Source of the DNA: a virus
Lineage: Duplodnaviria > Heunggongvirae > Uroviricota > Caudoviricetes
Direction: 5' to 3' (one strand)
Virus record (IMG/VR): IMGVR_UViG_2541047873_000005
Length of the DNA stretch: 47,737 nt
The number at the start of each line of letters is the position of its first letter. Within the stretch, counting starts at the first letter, position 1. The notes beneath the pieces are model-generated. The model saw only the letters and a program-made list of their open reading frames with translations, had not been told where the DNA came from and ran no database searches. Of this stretch, positions 3,308-42,987 are shown piece after piece. The position numbers and the translations under genes are program-made.

Positions 3308-3883
3308 CTACGGCAGTGCTGGCCATTCAATATCCTGTGCAGTTGACGTATCAACACGGTTCAGCAATACCCGATACTTTTTCCATGCTTCCAGCAACGA
3401 GATTTCTTCCTCCGTTGCAATTTCCAGATCTGCAGCATCCTGAAGCGGCGCAATATGCTCACTGGCTACCTGCATCAGGTTGTTTTTTGTTTCTTCCGCC
3501 TCCCGGATCCGGAACAGTTTTTCTGCTTCCGTATCCTTCACCCAGGCTGTGCCGTTCCACTTCTGAAACTCCCCTTCCGGGGATAACCAGGTGACATTTT
3601 CCGGTAATGGGCCAAGTTCAGAAATAAATAACGCGTCGCCGGAAGCCACGTCATAGACGGTTTTACCCCGATGATCTTCAACGAGATGCCACGATGCCTC
3701 ATCACTGTTGAAAACAGCCACGAAGCCAGCCGGAATATCTGGCGGTGCAATATCGGTACTGTTTGCTGGCAGACCTGTATGAGGCGGAATATATGCGTCA
3801 CCTTCACCAATAAATTCATTAGTTCCTGCCAGCAGATTATAAATTTTTATGGTCCGTGGTTGTTCACTCATTCTGAATGCCAT
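3308..3883 (-). CDS. tfa: Tail fibre assembly protein Tfa
   Basis: N-terminus [20 protein letters not shown] matches lambda Tfa along its length; ATG overlaps the stf stop (TAATG). Confidence 0.85.
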
Positions 3884-28054: not shown

Positions 28055-28325
28055 GATGTTACCGTAGTATGTGAGTATCCATCGAATAGATACCAAGCAA
28101 AAAAGCTCCCGAAGGAGCCTTCATTTTCACTTTTTTAAATCCAACGACAGACGGCTGGCATTTAAGTATTGTGAAATATTATCAAATGTAATCATCATTG
28201 ATTTACAAAAGATACATTTTGCCCCGAAAGGATTCATGTCAGAAACATCAAAAGATGATGTTCTATACTGGGAACCATGACAACACGGGCATCTAAAGTG
28301 AATATGGTTTGTAATATTGTCTACC

Positions 28326-28538
28326 TCAAAGCGCCACTACATGAACAGCGGCAGGACCTTTAGGTCCGTTCTCAATACCAAATTCAACTTCCTGATTCTC
28401 AGTTAATGTTTTGAAATCGTTGCTCTGAATTGCTGAGAAATGGACAAACACATCTTTGCTGCCATCTTTCGGCGTGATGAAACCAAAACCTTTTTCAGGG
28501 TTAAACCATTTCACTAAACCAGTCATTTTGTTAGACAT
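28326..28538 (-). CDS. cspI: Cold shock protein CspI
   Basis: 70 aa [70 protein letters not shown]; RNP1/RNP2 cold-shock domain motifs. Confidence 0.9.
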
Positions 28539-28901
28539 AATTATTACCTTTTGAAGAAATTAGCCCTTGGGCAGAATGGTCCGAAAAAAAATATCAGAGA
28601 GAAAAACCAACAAGGAAATCTCAAGAGGTACAAATAATAAAATTATAACAATGACTGCTTCAGATAAATTTGTAACAAACCAGAACACCATTAACGCATG
28701 ATTAACCACCCATAGCAAGGATTACTTTTGTAAAGAAAAACACAGCAATGAAAGAATAGCTTTATTTATTAATAATAACGTGTCATTCTGATTAAGACCT
28801 TTTATCTTACCCTTAAGATTTCAGGAATTTTGGCTCATGGAAGAGTCCTTTTTATTTAAATTTTACATTCCGCGATGTAAATGTTCCGATTTAATATTAC
28901 C

Positions 28902-30929: not shown

Positions 30930-31210
30930 GAGATTGTGGTGCTTTTTGTGGGAGTCATCCACTTACGCACTTTGTTTTGCCATGCCAGCAGTTAGCTTCT
31001 GCTGTAAAACTATTCATGCAGCAAACCTGCACTTCACCACAATGGTTAGCATACTTTTCCTGATTAAGATTTTGCCAAATATGCTAGCCATTGTTTCATG
31101 TATTGGACCTCCTTACTTTTTATTAAAGAGATCCAATATTCACTACTCTGTCCGTATCTCTACTCAGGCATCAGCCTTCTTCGTTATCGTATACAGACGA
31201 GCGATGAATT

Positions 31211-31426
31211 TTAATCAGTAATGATGACATTTGCTGCTGCAGGACCTTTAGCACCACTCTCTATAGAGAAGGTAACCTTTTGACCTTCAAATAAGGTTCG
31301 ATAATTATCATTCTGAATCGCAGAAAAATGCACAAACACATCTTTACTACCATCAACAGGAGAAATAAAGCCGAAACCTTTATCAGCGTTAAACCATTTT
31401 ACTAAACCAGTCATTTTATTTGACAT
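31211..31426 (-). CDS. cspB: Cold shock protein CspB
   Basis: 71 aa [71 protein letters not shown]. Confidence 0.9.
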
Positions 31427-31726
31427 TCTACATTCCTTAACTTGAGCCTTTCGGCATAAATGGTTTGCATAACAGAAACGACTTCGTACTTAATTGGAGA
31501 GACTCAAAGAAGGAATAAGTGAATAACACCTGAAATGAGAACTGCTTTAGTAAACTACTTCGTATATCGTCTGTTCTTCAAACCGACGCAATCATTAACG
31601 CATAGTTGAACATATGAAGCAATGTTTATTTTAGACATCCAGCCATCTTCAACCCCATCAAAAAACTATAGCTTTCTTCAGGAACGTGTGTATAGTGCGC
31701 CAAGTTATCAGTATTAAGGAATTTTT

Positions 31727-34990: not shown

Positions 34991-35146
34991 TTACTCCTCA
35001 GGTTCGTAAGCTGTGAAGACAGCGACCTCCGTCTGGCCGGTTCGGATTCGTACCTCGCAGAGGTCTTTCCTCGTTACCAGTGCCGTCACTATGACGGTTA
35101 AACAGATGACGATCAGGGCGATTAACATCGCCTTTTGCTGCTTCAT
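34991..35146 (-). CDS. hokD: Hok-family membrane toxin HokD (RelF)
   Basis: 51 aa MKQQKAMLIALIVICLTVIVTALVTRKDLCEVRIRTGQTEVAVFTAYEPEE matches HokD; track ORF 34991..35203 carries an in-frame upstream extension. Confidence 0.9.
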   Translation of the reverse strand: MKQQKAMLIALIVICLTVIVTALVTRKDLCEVRIRTGQTEVAVFTAYEPEE

Positions 35147-35935
35147 AGCCTGCTTCTCCTTGCCTTTCGGCTCGTAAGAGGCTAACCTACATGTGTCTAG
35201 CATGAAATTGGCCTCAGATTAATGTTAAGCGTCTTGCAGGACGCGTAATGTTAACTGGGGCTTTTCTCTATCTGCCTTTGGTGTTCATGCCCGAGGCAGA
35301 TAGCCTCAAGCACCCGCAGCCATTCTACTTAACTACCGTTACCTCGCCAATATGAAATCAGTCAGAAAGGCGATCCATAAGAACAATAGCAAGACAATAA
35401 ATCGCCATTACAGCCGTAATAGCCAGCGCACATTTGAGAACCAGCACCACAACCTCCTGTATTGGACGTAGACCAGTCCTGATGAATATGAGGCTGTCTC
35501 GTCAGTGATTCAATACAACTATTGGGTATAGTTTCTCTGATTTTTTCTGTGGAAATGGGGCACAACCACTAGTCACCACCAGCACTTCTTTTAATACGCA
35601 AAGTCCGACACAAGCTAACCTTCTAGTCCGCTTTGAGCGAAAAACAGCCATAATTTAGTGCCACGTATATAATGATAGAGCTATTCAAGCTAGCAATTCA
35701 CATGTAAAAATTCAGAGGGTAGAAGCACATAGTTATAAATGTTGGCTCCATCGACAAATTGCGGTCTCAAGTACATTTATTAATGTTGCCCCCGCATTAA
35801 CAAATCATCAAGGTGACGACATGGACGATATTAATATCAGCCTCGACGAACTTAACACTATTGATTTATCCCCCTTAATCCTGAACCGCCCCGGGAATCC
35901 TGGAGACTAAACTTCCTGAGAAAGAGGTAAACAGG

Positions 35936-36262
35936 ATGACTAAAAATACTCGTTTTTCCCCCGAAGTCCGTCAACGGGCAGTCCGTATGGTTCTGGAAAG
36001 TCAGAGCGAATATGACTCACAATGGGCGACAATTTGTTCCATTGCTCCAAAGATTGGCTGTACGCCGGAGACTCTGCGTGTCTGGGTTCGCCAGCATGAG
36101 CGGGATACCGGGGGCGGTGATGGAGGGCTCACCACCGCTGAACGTCAGCGTCTGAAAGAGCTGGAACGTGAAAATCGTGAACTGCGCCGCAGTAACGATA
36201 TCCTTCGCCAGGCTTCCGCTTATTTTGCGAAGGCGGAGTTCGACCGCCTCTGGAAAAAATGA
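35936..36262 (+). CDS. IS629 transposase OrfA (HTH)
   Basis: 108 aa [37 protein letters not shown]...; ends next to an A6 run usable for -1 frameshift into orfB. Confidence 0.9.
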
Positions 36263-37149
36263 TGCCACTGCTGGATAAGCTGCGTGAGCAGTACGGGGTC
36301 GGACCGCTATGCAGCGAACTGCATATTGCCCCGTCAACGTATTACCACTGTCAGCAACAGCGACATCATCCGGATAAACGCAGTGCCCGTGCGCAGCGCG
36401 ATGACTGGCTGAAGAAAGAGATACAGCGCGTATACGATGAAAATCACAAGGTATACGGTGTGCGTAAAGTCTGGCGTCAGTTGTTACGGGAAGGTATCAG
36501 AGTGGCCAGATGCACTGTGGCACGTCTCATGGCGGTTATGGGACTTGCCGGTGTTCTCCGGGGTAAAAAGGTCCGTACGACCATCAGCCGGAAAGCCGTT
36601 GCCGCAGGCGACCGCGTAAACCGTCAGTTCGTGGCAGAACGACCTGACCAGCTGTGGGTGGCTGATTTTACTTACGTCAGCACATGGCGGGGCTTCGTCT
36701 ATGTGGCGTTCATCATTGATGTGTTTGCCGGATACATCGTGGGGTGGCGGGTCTCATCGTCCATGGAAACGACATTCGTGCTGGATGCACTGGAGCAGGC
36801 GTTATGGGCCCGTCGACCGTCCGGCACGGTCCATCACAGTGATAAAGGTTCTCAGTATGTATCGCTGGCCTACACACAGCGGCTTAAGGAAGCCGGATTA
36901 CTGGCATCAACAGGAAGTACAGGCGACTCGTATGACAACGCGATGGCGGAGAGCATCAATGGTCTTTACAAAGCGGAGGTAATACACCGTAAGAGCTGGA
37001 AAAACCGTGCAGAAGTGGAACTGGCCACACTCACGTGGGTGGACTGGTATAACAATCGACGATTGCTGGAAAGGCTGGGCCATACTCCTCCGGCAGAAGC
37101 AGAAAAAGCTTATTATGCTTCCATCGGAAACGATGATCTGGCAGCCTGA
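36259..37149 (+). CDS. IS629 transposase OrfB (DDE integrase core)
   Basis: 296 aa, -1 frame overlap with orfA; DDE motifs (WVADFTY..., HSDKGSQY..., DNAMAES). Confidence 0.9.
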
Positions 37150-37385
37150 GTTCACAGATAAAACACTCTCCAGGAAACCCGGGGCGGTTCATCCAGAGTA
37201 AGCTGCCAGTTACCTGCTTTGATATCACAAAGTATCTTTCTAGCCTAGGTGATGGAAGAGCGGAGATAAGACTGCTAACCCATATTTGCGGTTTTCACTT
37301 TCGTCCCGAAAATCCACAGGTACCATTTGGTCCGTGCTTTCAAAGCAGCCAAGGTAGATCTGCAATTCCGGATGACATTAACGGG

Positions 37386-38921
37386 TTGTCGCTGGAGGTA
37401 CTTTCTCAATTTTGCCCGACGATAGAGCTACCCGAACTTCAAGCTCGTATTGCTGATACACTTTGGGTTCGTAAAATTGGTGGAATCCGTTTTCCTTTGC
37501 TGGCAGTCCGTGCTTATTATGCGTCCAGTATAGCTATTATGACATCGCAAGGGACGTGGGTTAGTGCTTTAGAACGCCTAGAGCGTGCGCTTAGGCTGTG
37601 TTGTTTTTTTCGAAAGAATACTGATTTCAGGGATGAATTTGATCAGCTTTCGGCACATCTACTAGCAGAGTATGAACGTACCAGAGAACAAGGCGATTCA
37701 CCTTATCCGCTGCGACTCCTGCAACTCGATATCGACTGTAAAGTGAGTGAGCCATCTTTTATTGCCCAGGAACTCCTGTTTCTGACAAAAAACTATCTGG
37801 CTCAAAAATTATTTTCATTTGCCGTCGATGCCTGTAAAACCGCAATCACGATTGCGAATAGGTGCTGTGACAGAGATACACAGTTTGAATTCTGGCGGCT
37901 TCTTGCCGATACACATCTGGAAGAGTCAAAATTCCAAGATGGCGGTATGATTTCGGCAGCCTGCATGCAGAATGCTATTGAAGCACTGGCTAATATTCCA
38001 GGAACCCGAATAGAACGTCTTGCGCTGTATGAAGAAATGCGTGATTACCAAATCGAATCCCGTCACCAGATGTCTATCCTTCAGTCTCCCCCTCAAGATA
38101 TTAGTGAGATTGTCCATCAAGCCAAGAGTCGGGTAGTCGGAAGAGATATGTTTGATATGGTTTTCAGACTTGCGATGCTGGTCTGTCGGCCAACCAGCAT
38201 TGAGAGACTTAAGGCTCAAGCAATAGAACAAAAGGCCAACAGCATAGCTTGGATGTTTGGATCAACACATATTGATCATGAGGGAATGACACTTGCTCGC
38301 ATACCCGCAGGATTGGGGATTGATGATGCAAATGGGGCAGTTATTTGGCCCATAATGATGACGAGAATGCGTATCGACCATGAGTTGGCAGTAGCTGGGC
38401 AAATTATTCCTGCTACAGATGAGATCACAATGAAATATCCAATCTCGGAGGCGTTTTTTCGCGATATGTTCATCAATCATCCCTTCATCCCGTTTGGGCA
38501 TGAAGAGTTTTTCATCAAGGGTATGGTTTGCGGTTTCAATGGAGATTTTATGACGGCATGCCACGTGTTGATTCCCCAGATCGAAAATAGTCTGAGATAT
38601 GTGGCTAAAATTAAAGGTGAGGAACCATCGCAGCTTCACGGGGACGGTTCGCAAGAGCGAAATGGACTCAAGGGATTACTAGATAATCCACTGATTATTG
38701 AAGCTTTCGGCGTAGACATAATTGGCAATCTTCAGGCCTTACTGGTAGATAAAATCTATGGTGATTTACGAAATCAACTAGCTCACGGATATGTGCCTGC
38801 CGGTTACTACAATCAACCTCCCTGCATTTTTGCATGGTGGCTTGTATTGCACATTCTAATGAACCCTACGGCGAGATACTGGCAAGCCACTTATGGCCAA
38901 GAGAGTGAGGCTCAGACTTAA
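37386..38921 (+). CDS. 3' fragment (511 codons) of the IS629-disrupted gene
   Basis: Track ORF from TTG at 37386; contains DLRNQLAHGY near the C-terminus (about 38768..38785). Confidence 0.5.
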   Translation: MSLEVLSQFCPTIELPELQARIADTLWVRKIGGIRFPLLAVRAYYASSIAIMTSQGTWVSALERLERALRLCCFFRKNTDFRDEFDQLSAHLLAEYERTREQGDSPYPLRLLQLDIDCKVSEPSFIAQELLFLTKNYLAQKLFSFAVDACKTAITIANRCCDRDTQFEFWRLLADTHLEESKFQDGGMISAACMQNAIEALANIPGTRIERLALYEEMRDYQIESRHQMSILQSPPQDISEIVHQAKSRVVGRDMFDMVFRLAMLVCRPTSIERLKAQAIEQKANSIAWMFGSTHIDHEGMTLARIPAGLGIDDANGAVIWPIMMTRMRIDHELAVAGQIIPATDEITMKYPISEAFFRDMFINHPFIPFGHEEFFIKGMVCGFNGDFMTACHVLIPQIENSLRYVAKIKGEEPSQLHGDGSQERNGLKGLLDNPLIIEAFGVDIIGNLQALLVDKIYGDLRNQLAHGYVPAGYYNQPPCIFAWWLVLHILMNPTARYWQATYGQESEAQT

Positions 38922-39139
38922 AGTGAATAAGTTTACGAAGTTGGCACTTCCGGATGCATGTCCATATGAGTTGAGGCGATTTGGTTAATAAGGTTGAGTG
39001 CTGCTGAAATTATTCGATGTCCGCTTTTGGCACAAAGCGGACAACCACGCCAGATCTACCCTGTGCCATGAAAAATGAGAATGTCAATTCACTCCTGAAC
39101 TAATGCTTTTTAATCTAGTAACGTCTAAAATACCTAACA

Positions 39140-39541
39140 TTATCCCTGATAAAATGCCAGTATGCGCTGCATAACTTCACTCATCCGGCACTCGCGACAG
39201 ATTATGTTTAGGCGACTGTCGTAGCGACGTATTTCTCCATCAGGTAACGACCAGATAAGGTCCGGATCAACCACAGCTGTTTTCTTCACCTTTGCCCTCG
39301 AGAGTTTTTTGCGGGCGTTTTGCCAGTCCTTACGCGCCTGTTCAGACGGGAATAACCCGTAGCCGGAGTTGTATACATCGCCACTGGCTACCAGCTCTCT
39401 GGCAAGAACGCTCATCAGATATCTAGTCGCACCTGTTTTAGCTTCCAGTTGCCGTAACGTCTCACGACCGCTCTGGCGCACGAGTTCCACCACCTGCCCT
39501 TTAATTTTTTCCCGCTCTTCTTGTGTAAAAACTTTTGCCAC
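39140..39541 (-). CDS. Hypothetical protein (133 aa) downstream of replication initiator
   Basis: ORF in the position normally held by a P/DnaC-like loader but far too small; no recognised motif. Confidence 0.45.
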   Translation of the reverse strand: MAKVFTQEEREKIKGQVVELVRQSGRETLRQLEAKTGATRYLMSVLARELVASGDVYNSGYGLFPSEQARKDWQNARKKLSRAKVKKTAVVDPDLIWSLPDGEIRRYDSRLNIICRECRMSEVMQRILAFYQG

Positions 39542-39581
39542 AAGTCCCCCTTAAAATTACCTCATGACCTGAAATCAAAAC

Positions 39582-40601
39582 TTATCCTCTGAAACCAGGC
39601 GGAATTTCTGTATCCGGTTCAGAAATATGATTAACACAACGCTGTACAGGTGAACGCCCCAGGCGGATGACCAGTTCGTCCCATTTTTCGCGGAGCTTTG
39701 ACGGGCTCATGATGTTTTTTACCCAGAATGGATCCCGCTGTACCCGACCAAACATTTCACAAATTTGTCTGTGGCTTCTGCCATCCAGCATCCGCATTGT
39801 GCGCACATCATTGGCCCAGACAGTCCAGTTAGGCTCTTTTGGTCGCATGATCTCGCCATCATCACTGGCGGCCTGTTCGTAGAGACCCACGATCCGCCCC
39901 CATATCCACTGCGCACACGCCAGATCCTCCTGGCTACCCCACTGGCGTTTTTTCGCACTAAACACAACTGCGCCAGGGTGCCGGATTAAAAAATCCTGTT
40001 CAGCCGTCTGCGGGTCCGGTTGCGAAGCTTCCGGACGAAAAGTGTTTTTATTCTCTGTAGTAATCTCTGTTGTATTCTCTGTAGGATCATCGGGCCATTT
40101 TGACCCGATGACATTGGGTCGTTTTGAACCAATGGAGCGTTTCATTTTGACCTCTTCCATCGTGTCATTTTGACCTGATGGAGCGGCGCATTTTGAACCG
40201 ATGGATTCGCTCAATTTGCCATCATCTAAAAGCTCGCTTCCATAGTTAATCGTGTAGAAATTGGTCATATCGCGCTTTGATTTATTGAGCTTTTCACAAC
40301 GCAAAAGCCCCAGCGTTTTCAGACTTGCAAACGCGCGCTTTAACGTTGACTCTGACCAGAATGGGAACTGTTCCAGCCATTGTTCCGTTGTGTTGTAAAT
40401 CCAGCGAACACCATCACATTCCATGCCGGAATTGGTATCTCTCAACCAGTAATGCAACTGCTGCAACACAATGGCTTCATTTAAGCCAATCTTCATCGCA
40501 AGCTGTGTGTTTATAACCAGTGGGCGTTCAGCAAAAAGAAGGCTCATAATTCCATCCAGCTTTTTGTTGGTATTGCTGTCGATACGCAAGTTTGAAAGCA
40601 A
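39582..40601 (-). CDS. Replication initiator protein (lambda O-like) containing ori iterons
   Basis: 339 aa with N-terminal HTH-like domain; repeated IGSK protein motif encoded by DNA iterons; next to cro/cI-like genes. Confidence 0.7.
   Translation of the reverse strand: MLSNLRIDSNTNKKLDGIMSLLFAERPLVINTQLAMKIGLNEAIVLQQLHYWLRDTNSGMECDGVRWIYNTTEQWLEQFPFWSESTLKRAFASLKTLGLLRCEKLNKSKRDMTNFYTINYGSELLDDGKLSESIGSKCAAPSGQNDTMEEVKMKRSIGSKRPNVIGSKWPDDPTENTTEITTENKNTFRPEASQPDPQTAEQDFLIRHPGAVVFSAKKRQWGSQEDLACAQWIWGRIVGLYEQAASDDGEIMRPKEPNWTVWANDVRTMRMLDGRSHRQICEMFGRVQRDPFWVKNIMSPSKLREKWDELVIRLGRSPVQRCVNHISEPDTEIPPGFRG
40045..40210. repeat. Candidate origin of replication: five ~16-bp iterons (cATTTTGAcCyGATGG) at ~23-bp spacing plus adjacent TTCTCTGT direct repeats
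   Basis: Copies at about 40096, 40120, 40143, 40166 and 40189; three TTCTCTGTAG-like repeats at 40049..40084; all inside the O-like gene as in lambda. Confidence 0.6.
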
Positions 40602-41049
40602 TTGCTTTTTCTATAAGTTCGTCAGTTTCACGATCCACTACGGCAGGATCAGCAAAAAGCAGTCCGGACTCCACCACATCGCCATATTCTTTGTTTAACC
40701 CGGCGATCATGTACGTGATGCTTTTTCCGTCACTAATTTCACGATACAACCTGAAATCATTAATCCGGATAGCCTCCATAATTGCAGGCACTAGCGCCGT
40801 GAACTTTTCACGCTTATCCCTGGTGTCGATAGCCTTCCAGCGTTCGAATATCTTCACTCGATTAACGCCAAGCGCTCGCTGATCAACCGCGCCACCTTCA
40901 TCTGTGACACGCTGAACATCGATGTTCGGGCGCTCTTTCAAAGCCCAGAATGCTTCAGTGATTAATATCGTCGCCTGCTCCTGTGTCATTCCTGGTCGAC
41001 ATATCCAGGCATCCAGAGCCTCACGAGCCTGTTCAGGAGTGATTTTCAT
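40528..41049 (-). CDS. Hypothetical protein (173 aa) in the cII/YdaT position
   Basis: ORF between cro-like gene and replication initiator; weak resemblance to Rac YdaT around KREKFTALVPAI. Confidence 0.45.
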   Translation of the reverse strand: MKITPEQAREALDAWICRPGMTQEQATILITEAFWALKERPNIDVQRVTDEGGAVDQRALGVNRVKIFERWKAIDTRDKREKFTALVPAIMEAIRINDFRLYREISDGKSITYMIAGLNKEYGDVVESGLLFADPAVVDRETDELIEKAIAFKLAYRQQYQQKAGWNYEPSFC

Positions 41050-41260
41050 TGTTCAACCGCCCCGCCCGCTTCGTCTTACGATATTCGTCATAAACCTTGG
41101 GATCATACAGAAGCTCGCCGCCAGATGCCTCCTGTAGACGCATCGCGCGACCTTCAGGAACCAGCTCTTGCCATTGAGAAACAGCAGATGGGTCAACGCC
41201 AGCAGCTTTCGCTACTTTGGCTTTCGTACCGTAAAAATTAATTACGTCTGATTTAAACAT
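41033..41260 (-). CDS. dicC: Cro-like repressor DicC
   Basis: 75 aa; C-terminal half LVPEGRAMRLQEASGGELLYDPKVYDEYRKTKRAGRLNNENHS matches recalled K-12 DicC; divergent from dicA. Confidence 0.75.
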   Translation of the reverse strand: MFKSDVINFYGTKAKVAKAAGVDPSAVSQWQELVPEGRAMRLQEASGGELLYDPKVYDEYRKTKRAGRLNNENHS

Positions 41261-41337
41261 CGCACCTCCAGTATTGAGTTTTCTCAATGCTAATCACTCA
41301 AGGAATCTCAAGTCAAGGGTTATTAAGATATCTAAAT
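41261..41337. promoter_or_regulatory. dicC-dicA divergent promoter/operator region
   Basis: 77-bp gap between divergent repressor genes; palindrome TTGAG-tttt-CTCAA at 41274..41287 and tandem CTCAAG repeats. Confidence 0.4.
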
Positions 41338-42928: not shown

Positions 42929-42987
42929 TTTTCTGGTGACGTTTGGCGGTATCAGTTTTACTCCGTGACTGCTCTGCCGCCGTTTTT
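42929..42987 (+). ncRNA. dicF: DicF small RNA (ftsZ-targeting, Hfq-dependent) with intrinsic terminator
   Basis: TTTCTGGTGACGTTTGGCGGTATCAGTTTTACTCCGTGACTGCTCTGCCGCC followed by T5 matches the recalled DicF sequence; located between ydfC and dicB. Confidence 0.85.

Follow-up and report, generated by a model that had tools for sequence, protein, structure and literature searches.

The replication modules closest to the one described here, which occupies positions 39140-41049 of a 47,737-nucleotide stretch of Caudoviricetes DNA (IMG/VR record IMGVR_UViG_2541047873_000005; the whole stretch is referred to as the window), are those of phage lambda, of lambdoid phages that pair an initiator with a DnaC-like protein, and of the bacterial host itself. 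In lambda, the initiator O and the loader P are encoded in the early-right region after cro and cII, the origin (ori-lambda), with its iterons and A+T-rich stretch, lies inside the O gene, and ren follows the module. The C-terminal half of O is the part that contacts P. In Gifsy-1, Gifsy-2, SPN3UB and POCJ13 and other Stx phages, a DnaC-like gene follows the initiator, as ydaV follows ydaU in Rac and as dnaC follows dnaT, the gene of a fork-restart adaptor, in the host. Uetakevirus SPN1S and BUCT711 have a single initiator and no loader or helicase (in the whole 38.7-kb genome of SPN1S and in a 6-kb neighbourhood of BUCT711), and the domesticated lambda O/P-like pair DopC-DopE includes an O-like protein whose C-terminus is reported to resemble that of DnaT (Brezellec et al. 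2017, PMC5509034). The module in the window consists of an O-like initiator with no phage loader, a layout that is itself ordinary, ranking among the most frequent replication modules of E. coli prophages. The interest of the locus lies in the C-terminal tail of the initiator, which is common to host DnaT and many phage initiators and which tracks a DnaC-type or absent loader, never lambda P.

The region is the early-right replication segment of a lambdoid prophage of the Qin type that is intact. On the minus strand, the order is a promoter candidate, dicC (cro), a YdaT-family CII analogue, the initiator and a Ren-like DUF977 gene, and the three open-reading frames (ORFs) singled out in a preliminary description of this DNA lie where it had placed them (39140-39541, 39582-40601 and 40528-41049, all on the minus strand). 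The initiator (39582-40547, minus strand) has 321 aa when read from the ATG at 40547, the start used by the Prokaryotic Genome Annotation Pipeline (PGAP) in a 99.98%-identical genome, and 339 aa when read from a TTG at 40601; PGAP labels the protein a "hypothetical protein" in the corresponding prophage of E. coli 118UI. It matches phrog_391, "replication initiation O-like" (3.5e-92), and no Pfam domain, the Phage_rep_O domain PF04492 giving no match to it at E up to 0.1, compared with 6e-36 for lambda O and 1.5e-30 for Gifsy O. Its C-terminal domain, which is present in 2739 representative clusters, is 34% identical to the C-terminal half of lambda O over 148 aa (BLASTP, E 3e-27). The AlphaFold2 (AF2) model of the full-length protein is poor (predicted local distance difference test, pLDDT, 56) and shows an N-terminal winged helix, a disordered linker, a helical C-terminal domain that reaches a pLDDT of 88 when modelled alone, and a disordered end. 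On this low-confidence model, the N-terminal domain gave weak Foldseek matches to the RepA_N winged helix-turn-helix structures 4pql and 5kbj (E about 0.05-0.08), which are suggestive only.

The DNA coding for the disordered linker contains the putative origin. Five partly palindromic iterons of the CATCGGGTCAAAATGGCCCGATG type, spaced by 23-24 bp, lie inside the initiator gene at 40088-40226, and the iteron core GKTCAAAAYG, for which 0.65 copies are expected in the window, occurs there six times, five of them in 40096-40198. Adjoining the iterons, an A+T-rich stretch with a repeated TACAGAGAATA unit (40040-40087) is a candidate unwinding element by analogy with the layout of the lambda origin. 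The module thus shares with lambda O-P its early-right position after cro and a CII analogue, iterons and an A+T-rich stretch within the initiator gene, a homologous O C-terminal domain and a Ren-family gene after the module. It differs in having no P gene and no match to the Phage_rep_O N-terminal domain, in having five iterons of about 23 bp where lambda has four of 18 bp, and in an initiator that ends in IPPGFRG, whereas lambda O ends in …TNTDWIYGVDL.

No P, DnaC or DnaB homologue was found anywhere in the prophage. Hidden Markov models of phage DnaC-like proteins (built from 38) and of lambda-P-like proteins (built from 51) gave zero matches in the window, scans of the module's ORFs against Pfam, PHROG and NCBIfam returned no loader, and no loader or helicase is annotated by PGAP in the near-identical prophage of 118UI. 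These searches bear out the proposal of the preliminary description that the module lacks a P- or DnaC-type loader. That description, whose interpretation is partly supported overall, had overlooked two features of the locus, the DnaT-like C-terminal tail of the initiator and an optional DnaC-like gene at this junction in close siblings.

The tail is encoded by the codons for the last 21 residues of the initiator (VQRCVNHISEPDTEIPPGFRG; 39585-39647, minus strand), of which the last 20 (…VNHISEPDTEIPPGFRG) are 70% identical over 20 aa to the C-terminal end of E. coli DnaT. Matches of the initiator to the NCBIfam DnaT model and to the DnaT chains 2ru8, 6aep and 9zbt in the PDB cover these residues only. 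Outside it, the DnaT single-stranded DNA (ssDNA)-binding domain PF17948 was not matched in the initiator by Pfam, a family profile of the C-terminal domain found no match among PDB sequences, and a Foldseek search with the pLDDT-88 model of that domain gave a best match of E 1.9 with no DnaT chain among the matches. The conserved pattern is …SEPDxxIPxGFRG-COOH, and since IPxGFRG is constant among homologues, the linker before it differs between them in both length and sequence, and the linker of the AF2 model is disordered, the tail behaves as a short linear motif. In one representative, P0171, two tandem copies of the motif are present (…DYSIPKGFRGHDENEGY…ETEIPHGFRG), as would be expected of a portable linear motif. 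RAST annotates these initiators as "Primosomal protein I". Compared with the host dnaT-dnaC pair, the last 20 residues are nearly the same, and sibling phages have a DnaC paralogue within a few bases of the initiator, as dnaC follows dnaT. The bodies differ, however, in that the window's initiator lacks PF17948, has an N-terminal region with no Pfam match that is predicted to be a winged helix, with no DnaT-type N-terminal domain seen, and is a putative sequence-specific origin binder.

The association between tail and loader was surveyed in 166 loci of the lambda-O-type C-terminal domain family, consisting of 80 from IMG/VR, 80 from species-representative genomes and the references; a first IMG/VR scan had given close relatives only (at least 91% identical), and the diversity of the set comes from the species-representative genomes. 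Representatives of the family at 50% identity fall into tail classes IPxGFRG, lambda-like NTDWxxG, WNSxEAW and others. Trp-rich tails (…NTDWxxG… or …WNSxEAWExx; loci L005, L007 and L095-L164) were followed by lambda P in 36/36 cases, made up of all 14 NTDW tails and all 22 WNSxEAW tails, with an IstB/DnaC-like next gene, neither type of gene, or too little sequence in none of either class. Among the 97 loci with IPxGFRG tails, lambda P was the next gene in none, an IstB/DnaC-like gene (identified by PF01695, 1.3e-18) in 37 and neither in 56, with too little sequence in the remaining four. ORFs that might have been hidden loaders after divergent tail-bearing initiators proved to be ParB-HTH, MT-A70, DUF1627, PerC and DUF968 proteins. 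A tree of 112 unique C-terminal domain bodies has at least five switches in tail state and at least nine in the presence of a DnaC-like gene, and P occurs on none of its tail-bearing branches. The unique representatives comprise none with both tail and P, 45 with the tail and without P, 49 without the tail and with P, and 18 with neither, giving a Fisher value of 6e-17 for tail against P, a figure that overstates the significance since the sequences are related.

This pattern suggests that lambda O may dock P through its extreme C-terminus. One protein, P0034, is a natural tail and loader swap, being about 75% identical to the window's initiator, ending in the Trp-rich …DWNSADGWEDVL, and followed by Phage_lambda_P and then DUF977. 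The Trp-rich and DnaT-like tails appear to swap on domains that are otherwise 60-75% identical. A further tail class, …WNSIWKQA… or …KIWAECSQR…, occurs on the same domain in Proteus, Morganella, Edwardsiella, Sodalis and Providencia (L107-L119 and L151), where the next gene is neither lambda P nor DnaC-like.

The same tail was found on other protein bodies. Searching the phage collection by tblastn with the tail of DnaT returned 49 records, in which the tail is followed by a DnaC-like loader in Gifsy-1, Gifsy-2, SPN3UB, POCJ13 and a Klebsiella phage, and stands without a loader in SPN1S (whole genome), BUCT711 and Tritos. A Phage_rep_O N-terminal domain was confirmed for the tail-bearing initiator of Gifsy-1, and Rac YdaU, upstream of YdaV, ends …VNTVSLPDSAIPPGFRG. 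In the reverse check, of 78 genes lying immediately upstream of DnaC-like loaders of the Gifsy type, 75 carried the tail at their end. Pooling of all tail-bearing proteins gave 181, of which 118 were followed by a DnaC-family gene, 59 by no loader and none by lambda P, with four unscorable for too little downstream sequence. These proteins span at least four C-terminal and eight N-terminal body classes, with loader-less cases in every class. E. coli DnaC and the phage DnaC-like protein share 48% identity (E 1e-87), and the junction in sibling phages, consisting of the tail, a stop codon, a few bases and MKN…, resembles the host dnaT-dnaC junction.

Modules of the Gifsy, SPN3UB, POCJ13/Stx and Rac phages share the window's tail, and the siblings of the window's initiator belong to this O-plus-DnaC type; POCJ13 and Rac additionally have the DUF1627 and DUF977 genes that lie downstream in the siblings of this module. 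The window differs from them in lacking both the DnaC-like gene and DUF1627, and the initiator bodies differ as well, with a Phage_rep_O N-terminal domain in Gifsy, an unrelated body without a Pfam match in YdaU, and other bodies elsewhere. The loader-less SPN1S and BUCT711 initiators end …PDxEIPPGFRG, but the former has a true DnaT DNA-binding domain (PF17948, 3.9e-18), the latter clusters with the Gifsy/YdaU-type body, and neither has a lambda-O-type domain or a DUF977 or YdaT neighbour. DopC differs further from the window's initiator in being chromosomal, without iterons and paired with a P-like protein (PMC5509034).

The reading that we favour, with some reserve, is that the initiator tail probably docks the host DnaB·DnaC complex so that host DnaC does the loading and a phage loader is dispensable. 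The N-terminal winged-helix domain would bind the iterons, and the tail, copying the C-terminal tail of host DnaT, would dock host DnaB6·DnaC6 onto the opened origin with DnaC or DnaB as its direct partner. Loading itself would then fall to host DnaC, while in close siblings the optional phage DnaC paralogue may load instead. Use of host factors, one of two options raised in the preliminary description, is the best reading of the loader-less module. In species-representative genomes, tail-bearing initiators were found only in Enterobacteriaceae and Erwiniaceae, a distribution consistent with docking of DnaB·DnaC by the tail, and P-type modules reach Aeromonas, Shewanella and Burkholderiales. 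A more far-reaching reading, which we advance tentatively and hold a little short of an even bet, is that the IPxGFRG tail is the handle by which DnaT brings DnaB·DnaC to the primosome and that it has been captured repeatedly by unrelated phage initiators, hence the DnaC-type-only pairing and the dispensable loader; the Trp-rich end of lambda O would be the equivalent for docking P, and host dnaT-dnaC may descend from a phage module.

How the PriA-PriB-DnaT preprimosome recruits DnaB/DnaC has been described as unknown in papers of 2018, 2024 and 2026 (PMC5778457, PMC11087952, PMC13377028), and the tail/loader pattern points to a specific motif of 7-20 residues for this recruitment. If true, docking by the tail would explain the lone-initiator prophages of roughly a third of complete E. 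coli genomes. We found no open-access paper connecting the tail with loader type or with loader-less modules, and an earlier description in the subscription literature is possible; nor was a relevant open-access paper found on PPGFRG/IPPGF, DUF977 or "initiator-solo".

Several points weigh against docking of DnaB·DnaC by the tail. The link between the two rests on gene-neighbourhood association among related, non-independent sequences, and with initiator and loader adjacent in nearly all modules, the co-inheritance of tail and dnaC could reflect recombination breakpoints and not contact. Homology of the initiator's C-terminal domain to a DnaT domain was rejected on the Pfam, PDB-profile and Foldseek searches, the resemblance being confined to the tail. 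[quoted passage not shown] Finally, O-like DopC, with its reported DnaT C-terminal motif, pairs with P-like DopE (PMC5509034).

The alternative that survives best, though we regard it as unlikely, is that the tail is a DNA-side element that stabilises the unwound origin through cooperative ssDNA binding or oligomerisation, with DnaB·DnaC drawn in by another surface or by the exposed ssDNA. Loss of DnaT residues 154-179 weakens binding to dT30 (Kd from 9.9 to 27 uM) and lowers cooperativity (PMC4132743), the tail contains Arg and Phe residues, and a need of DnaC-type loading for exposed ssDNA could account for an association with modules of the DnaC type and not the P type. The change in ssDNA binding is less than three-fold, however, and a portable docking motif fits better with a tail carried by at least four unrelated C-terminal bodies, including a lambda-O-type domain without a detectable DnaT fold. 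The absence of lambda P after all 181 tail-bearing proteins is also not predicted by a DNA-side role, since P-type origins need ssDNA as well.

Less probable still is that the tail docks PriA or PriB and hands the opened origin over to the PriA-PriB-DnaT restart primosome of the host, which would then load DnaB. DnaT, which shares the tail, acts within the PriA/PriB complex, and initiators of the SPN1S type have the whole DnaT DNA-binding domain together with the tail. In the 2026 structures, by contrast, DnaT uses a hydrophobic face on its C-terminal domain to contact PriA and the acidic linker to contact PriB, with no role for the tail in the passages that describe these contacts (PMC13377028), and such docking would leave unexplained the 118 tail-bearing genes that lie directly upstream of DnaC paralogues.

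We consider it very improbable that the module is a decayed remnant, from which a DnaC-like gene (with DUF1627) was deleted and which left the prophage unable to start its own replication or in need of a helper. The prophage does carry IS629, and the DnaC-bearing siblings together with intermediates that have initiator, DUF1627 and DUF977 without the DnaC-like gene (L062, L067 and L068) resemble a deletion series. Comparison with 118UI shows, however, that IS629 (35882-37187) inserted cleanly, its flanks being contiguous, into a plus-strand DUF7380/DUF4209 gene and 2 kb from the initiator. The junction in the window, IPPGFRG, a stop codon, 40 nt and the DUF977 start, is identical in mEp460_ev081, whose parental phage mEp460 reportedly completes the lytic as well as the lysogenic cycle (PMC9836094), and the arrangement recurs in the phage genomes HannyBb (from bird faeces) and Tritos and in dozens of IMG/VR contigs. 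HannyBb has this junction without the antisense DUF7380/DUF4209 moron and encodes no loader or helicase in its whole genome, a 259-aa ORF examined as a hidden loader being QueH. On these comparisons, loss of a loader through IS629 or the moron was rejected, and the other option of the preliminary description, displacement of the loader on their arrival, is not supported.

Of 5426 complete E. coli genomes, 1921 covered at least 80% of a 261-bp probe spanning the loader-less junction. The corresponding junction of the DnaC-bearing siblings (initiator, DnaC-like, DUF1627, DUF977) was found in 1244 genomes, making the loader-less form at least as common. The siblings have near-identical tails and C-terminal domains at least 91% identical, and loader-less tail-bearing modules recur in the unrelated phages SPN1S and BUCT711. 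The loader-less layout is therefore a common, normal variant of the lambdoid replication module and not damage. The variable presence of the DnaC-like gene, seen in these genomes, in the intermediates and in the changes on the domain tree, indicates that the phage loader is optional in the module. In one further locus of intermediate layout, L081, a single ORF matches both the DUF1627 and the DUF977 models.

The 133-aa protein encoded after the initiator (39140-39541, minus strand) is a DUF977/LygF protein and a Ren-family homologue. It matches DUF977 (PF06163) at 6e-27 and phrog_142, "Ren-like", at 1.9e-44, a family that lambda Ren itself matches at 1.6e-41, and its C-terminal 20 aa are 50% identical to lambda Ren. 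It is also 87% identical to LygF of a Rac-type phage, and since LygF lies after ydaU, ydaV (DnaC-like) and ydaW in that phage, the 133-aa protein occupies the ren position and not the P position. The idea that it is a small novel helicase loader replacing P or DnaC draws on its place directly 3′ of the initiator, where P would be, and is barely credible and was rejected, since DUF977 genes occur downstream of P-type, DnaC-type and loader-less modules alike, following complete P-type (L007) and DnaC-type (Rac, POCJ13, L085) modules and being absent from the other loader-less tail-bearing modules (SPN1S, BUCT711, L088-L094), and since the protein falls in the same PHROG as lambda Ren. Lambda Ren is dispensable for lambda replication. 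The 133-aa protein is thus a Ren-family accessory protein and not a loader, and the view of the loader-less layout as unusual fails, with this protein in lambda Ren's PHROG and in the ren position and with intact phages that are loader-less too.

The 173-aa protein encoded before the initiator (40528-41049, minus strand) is a YdaT-family protein and a functional analogue of CII in switches of the Rac/CP-933P type. The profile search for YdaT_toxin suggested in the preliminary description found PF06254 at 1.2e-5 and 26.1 bits, above the cut-off of 21, and phrog_163, "CII-like", was matched at 2.3e-40, with weak sequence matches to the YdaT structures 3c4r and 8bt1. The gene sits between the cro-like gene and the initiator, which together with the PF06254 match confirms its placement in the cII/YdaT position. 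Published work describes YdaT as functionally equivalent to lambda CII in switches of this type, and not as a toxin (PMC9986795, PMC8630535, PMC5917428), and the 173-aa protein is a lysis-lysogeny regulator and not a loader. Both of the flanking proteins, given as unknown in the preliminary description, belong to described families. Neither the 133-aa nor the 173-aa protein was matched by PADLOC. The operator of CP-933P YdaT, TTGATT-N6-AATCAA (PMC9986795), has only chance-level matches in the window and none near the switch region, and because this YdaT is divergent, the 173-aa protein probably reads a different operator.

The cro-type regulator dicC (41033-41260, minus strand; PGAP coordinates) matches NCBIfam DicC at 4e-49 and Pfam P22_Cro at 4.4e-16, and DicA is encoded near the three ORFs (NCBIfam 1.2e-71). 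A pR-like sigma-70 promoter candidate upstream of dicC/cro (41287-41316, minus strand) would read into a cro-ydaT-initiator-DUF977 operon; its 9/12 matches in a consensus scan are weak alone, and its position between the divergent dicA and dicC supports it. On the other side, the module is bounded by the antisense moron, which lies outside it and of which the 3′ part is present (37386-38921, plus strand; Pfam DUF7380 and DUF4209), the 5′ end having been cut by IS629. Between the convergent DUF977 gene and the moron, a repeat search found a perfect 10-bp inverted repeat (39018-39043) that, from its position, is likely a bidirectional terminator.

The window is 99.95-99.98% identical along its length to the prophage that 118UI carries at the ydfJ site, which is related to the Qin remnant of K-12 and intact. 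Comparison of positions 1-47737 with NZ_CP032515.1 showed an intact Qin-type prophage at ydfJ with integrase, excisionase, an 823-aa exonuclease, dicB, and lysis, head and tail genes. The match of the query to K-12 is limited to its dicC-ydfX end, so that ydfX looks like a stump of this ydaT gene. An IS200C element between the tail-fibre and lom-like genes is present in 118UI and not in the window. Rfam matches above the gathering score identified the DicF small RNA upstream of dicB (42931-42982, plus strand) and, on the minus strand, the sok antitoxin RNA of a hok/sok pair (35141-35315), two cspA-type thermoregulator leaders (28299-28684 and 31195-31587) and IS009 (3342-3540). The intact 595-aa moron protein of 118UI matches the PADLOC candidate defence system PDC-S39 at 8e-103, and since IS629 is inserted near the 5′ end of the DUF7380/DUF4209 gene (37188-38921), this candidate anti-phage gene of the prophage is knocked out in the window. 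IS629 itself (35882-37187) carries an ALIL frameshift pseudoknot at 36217-36333.

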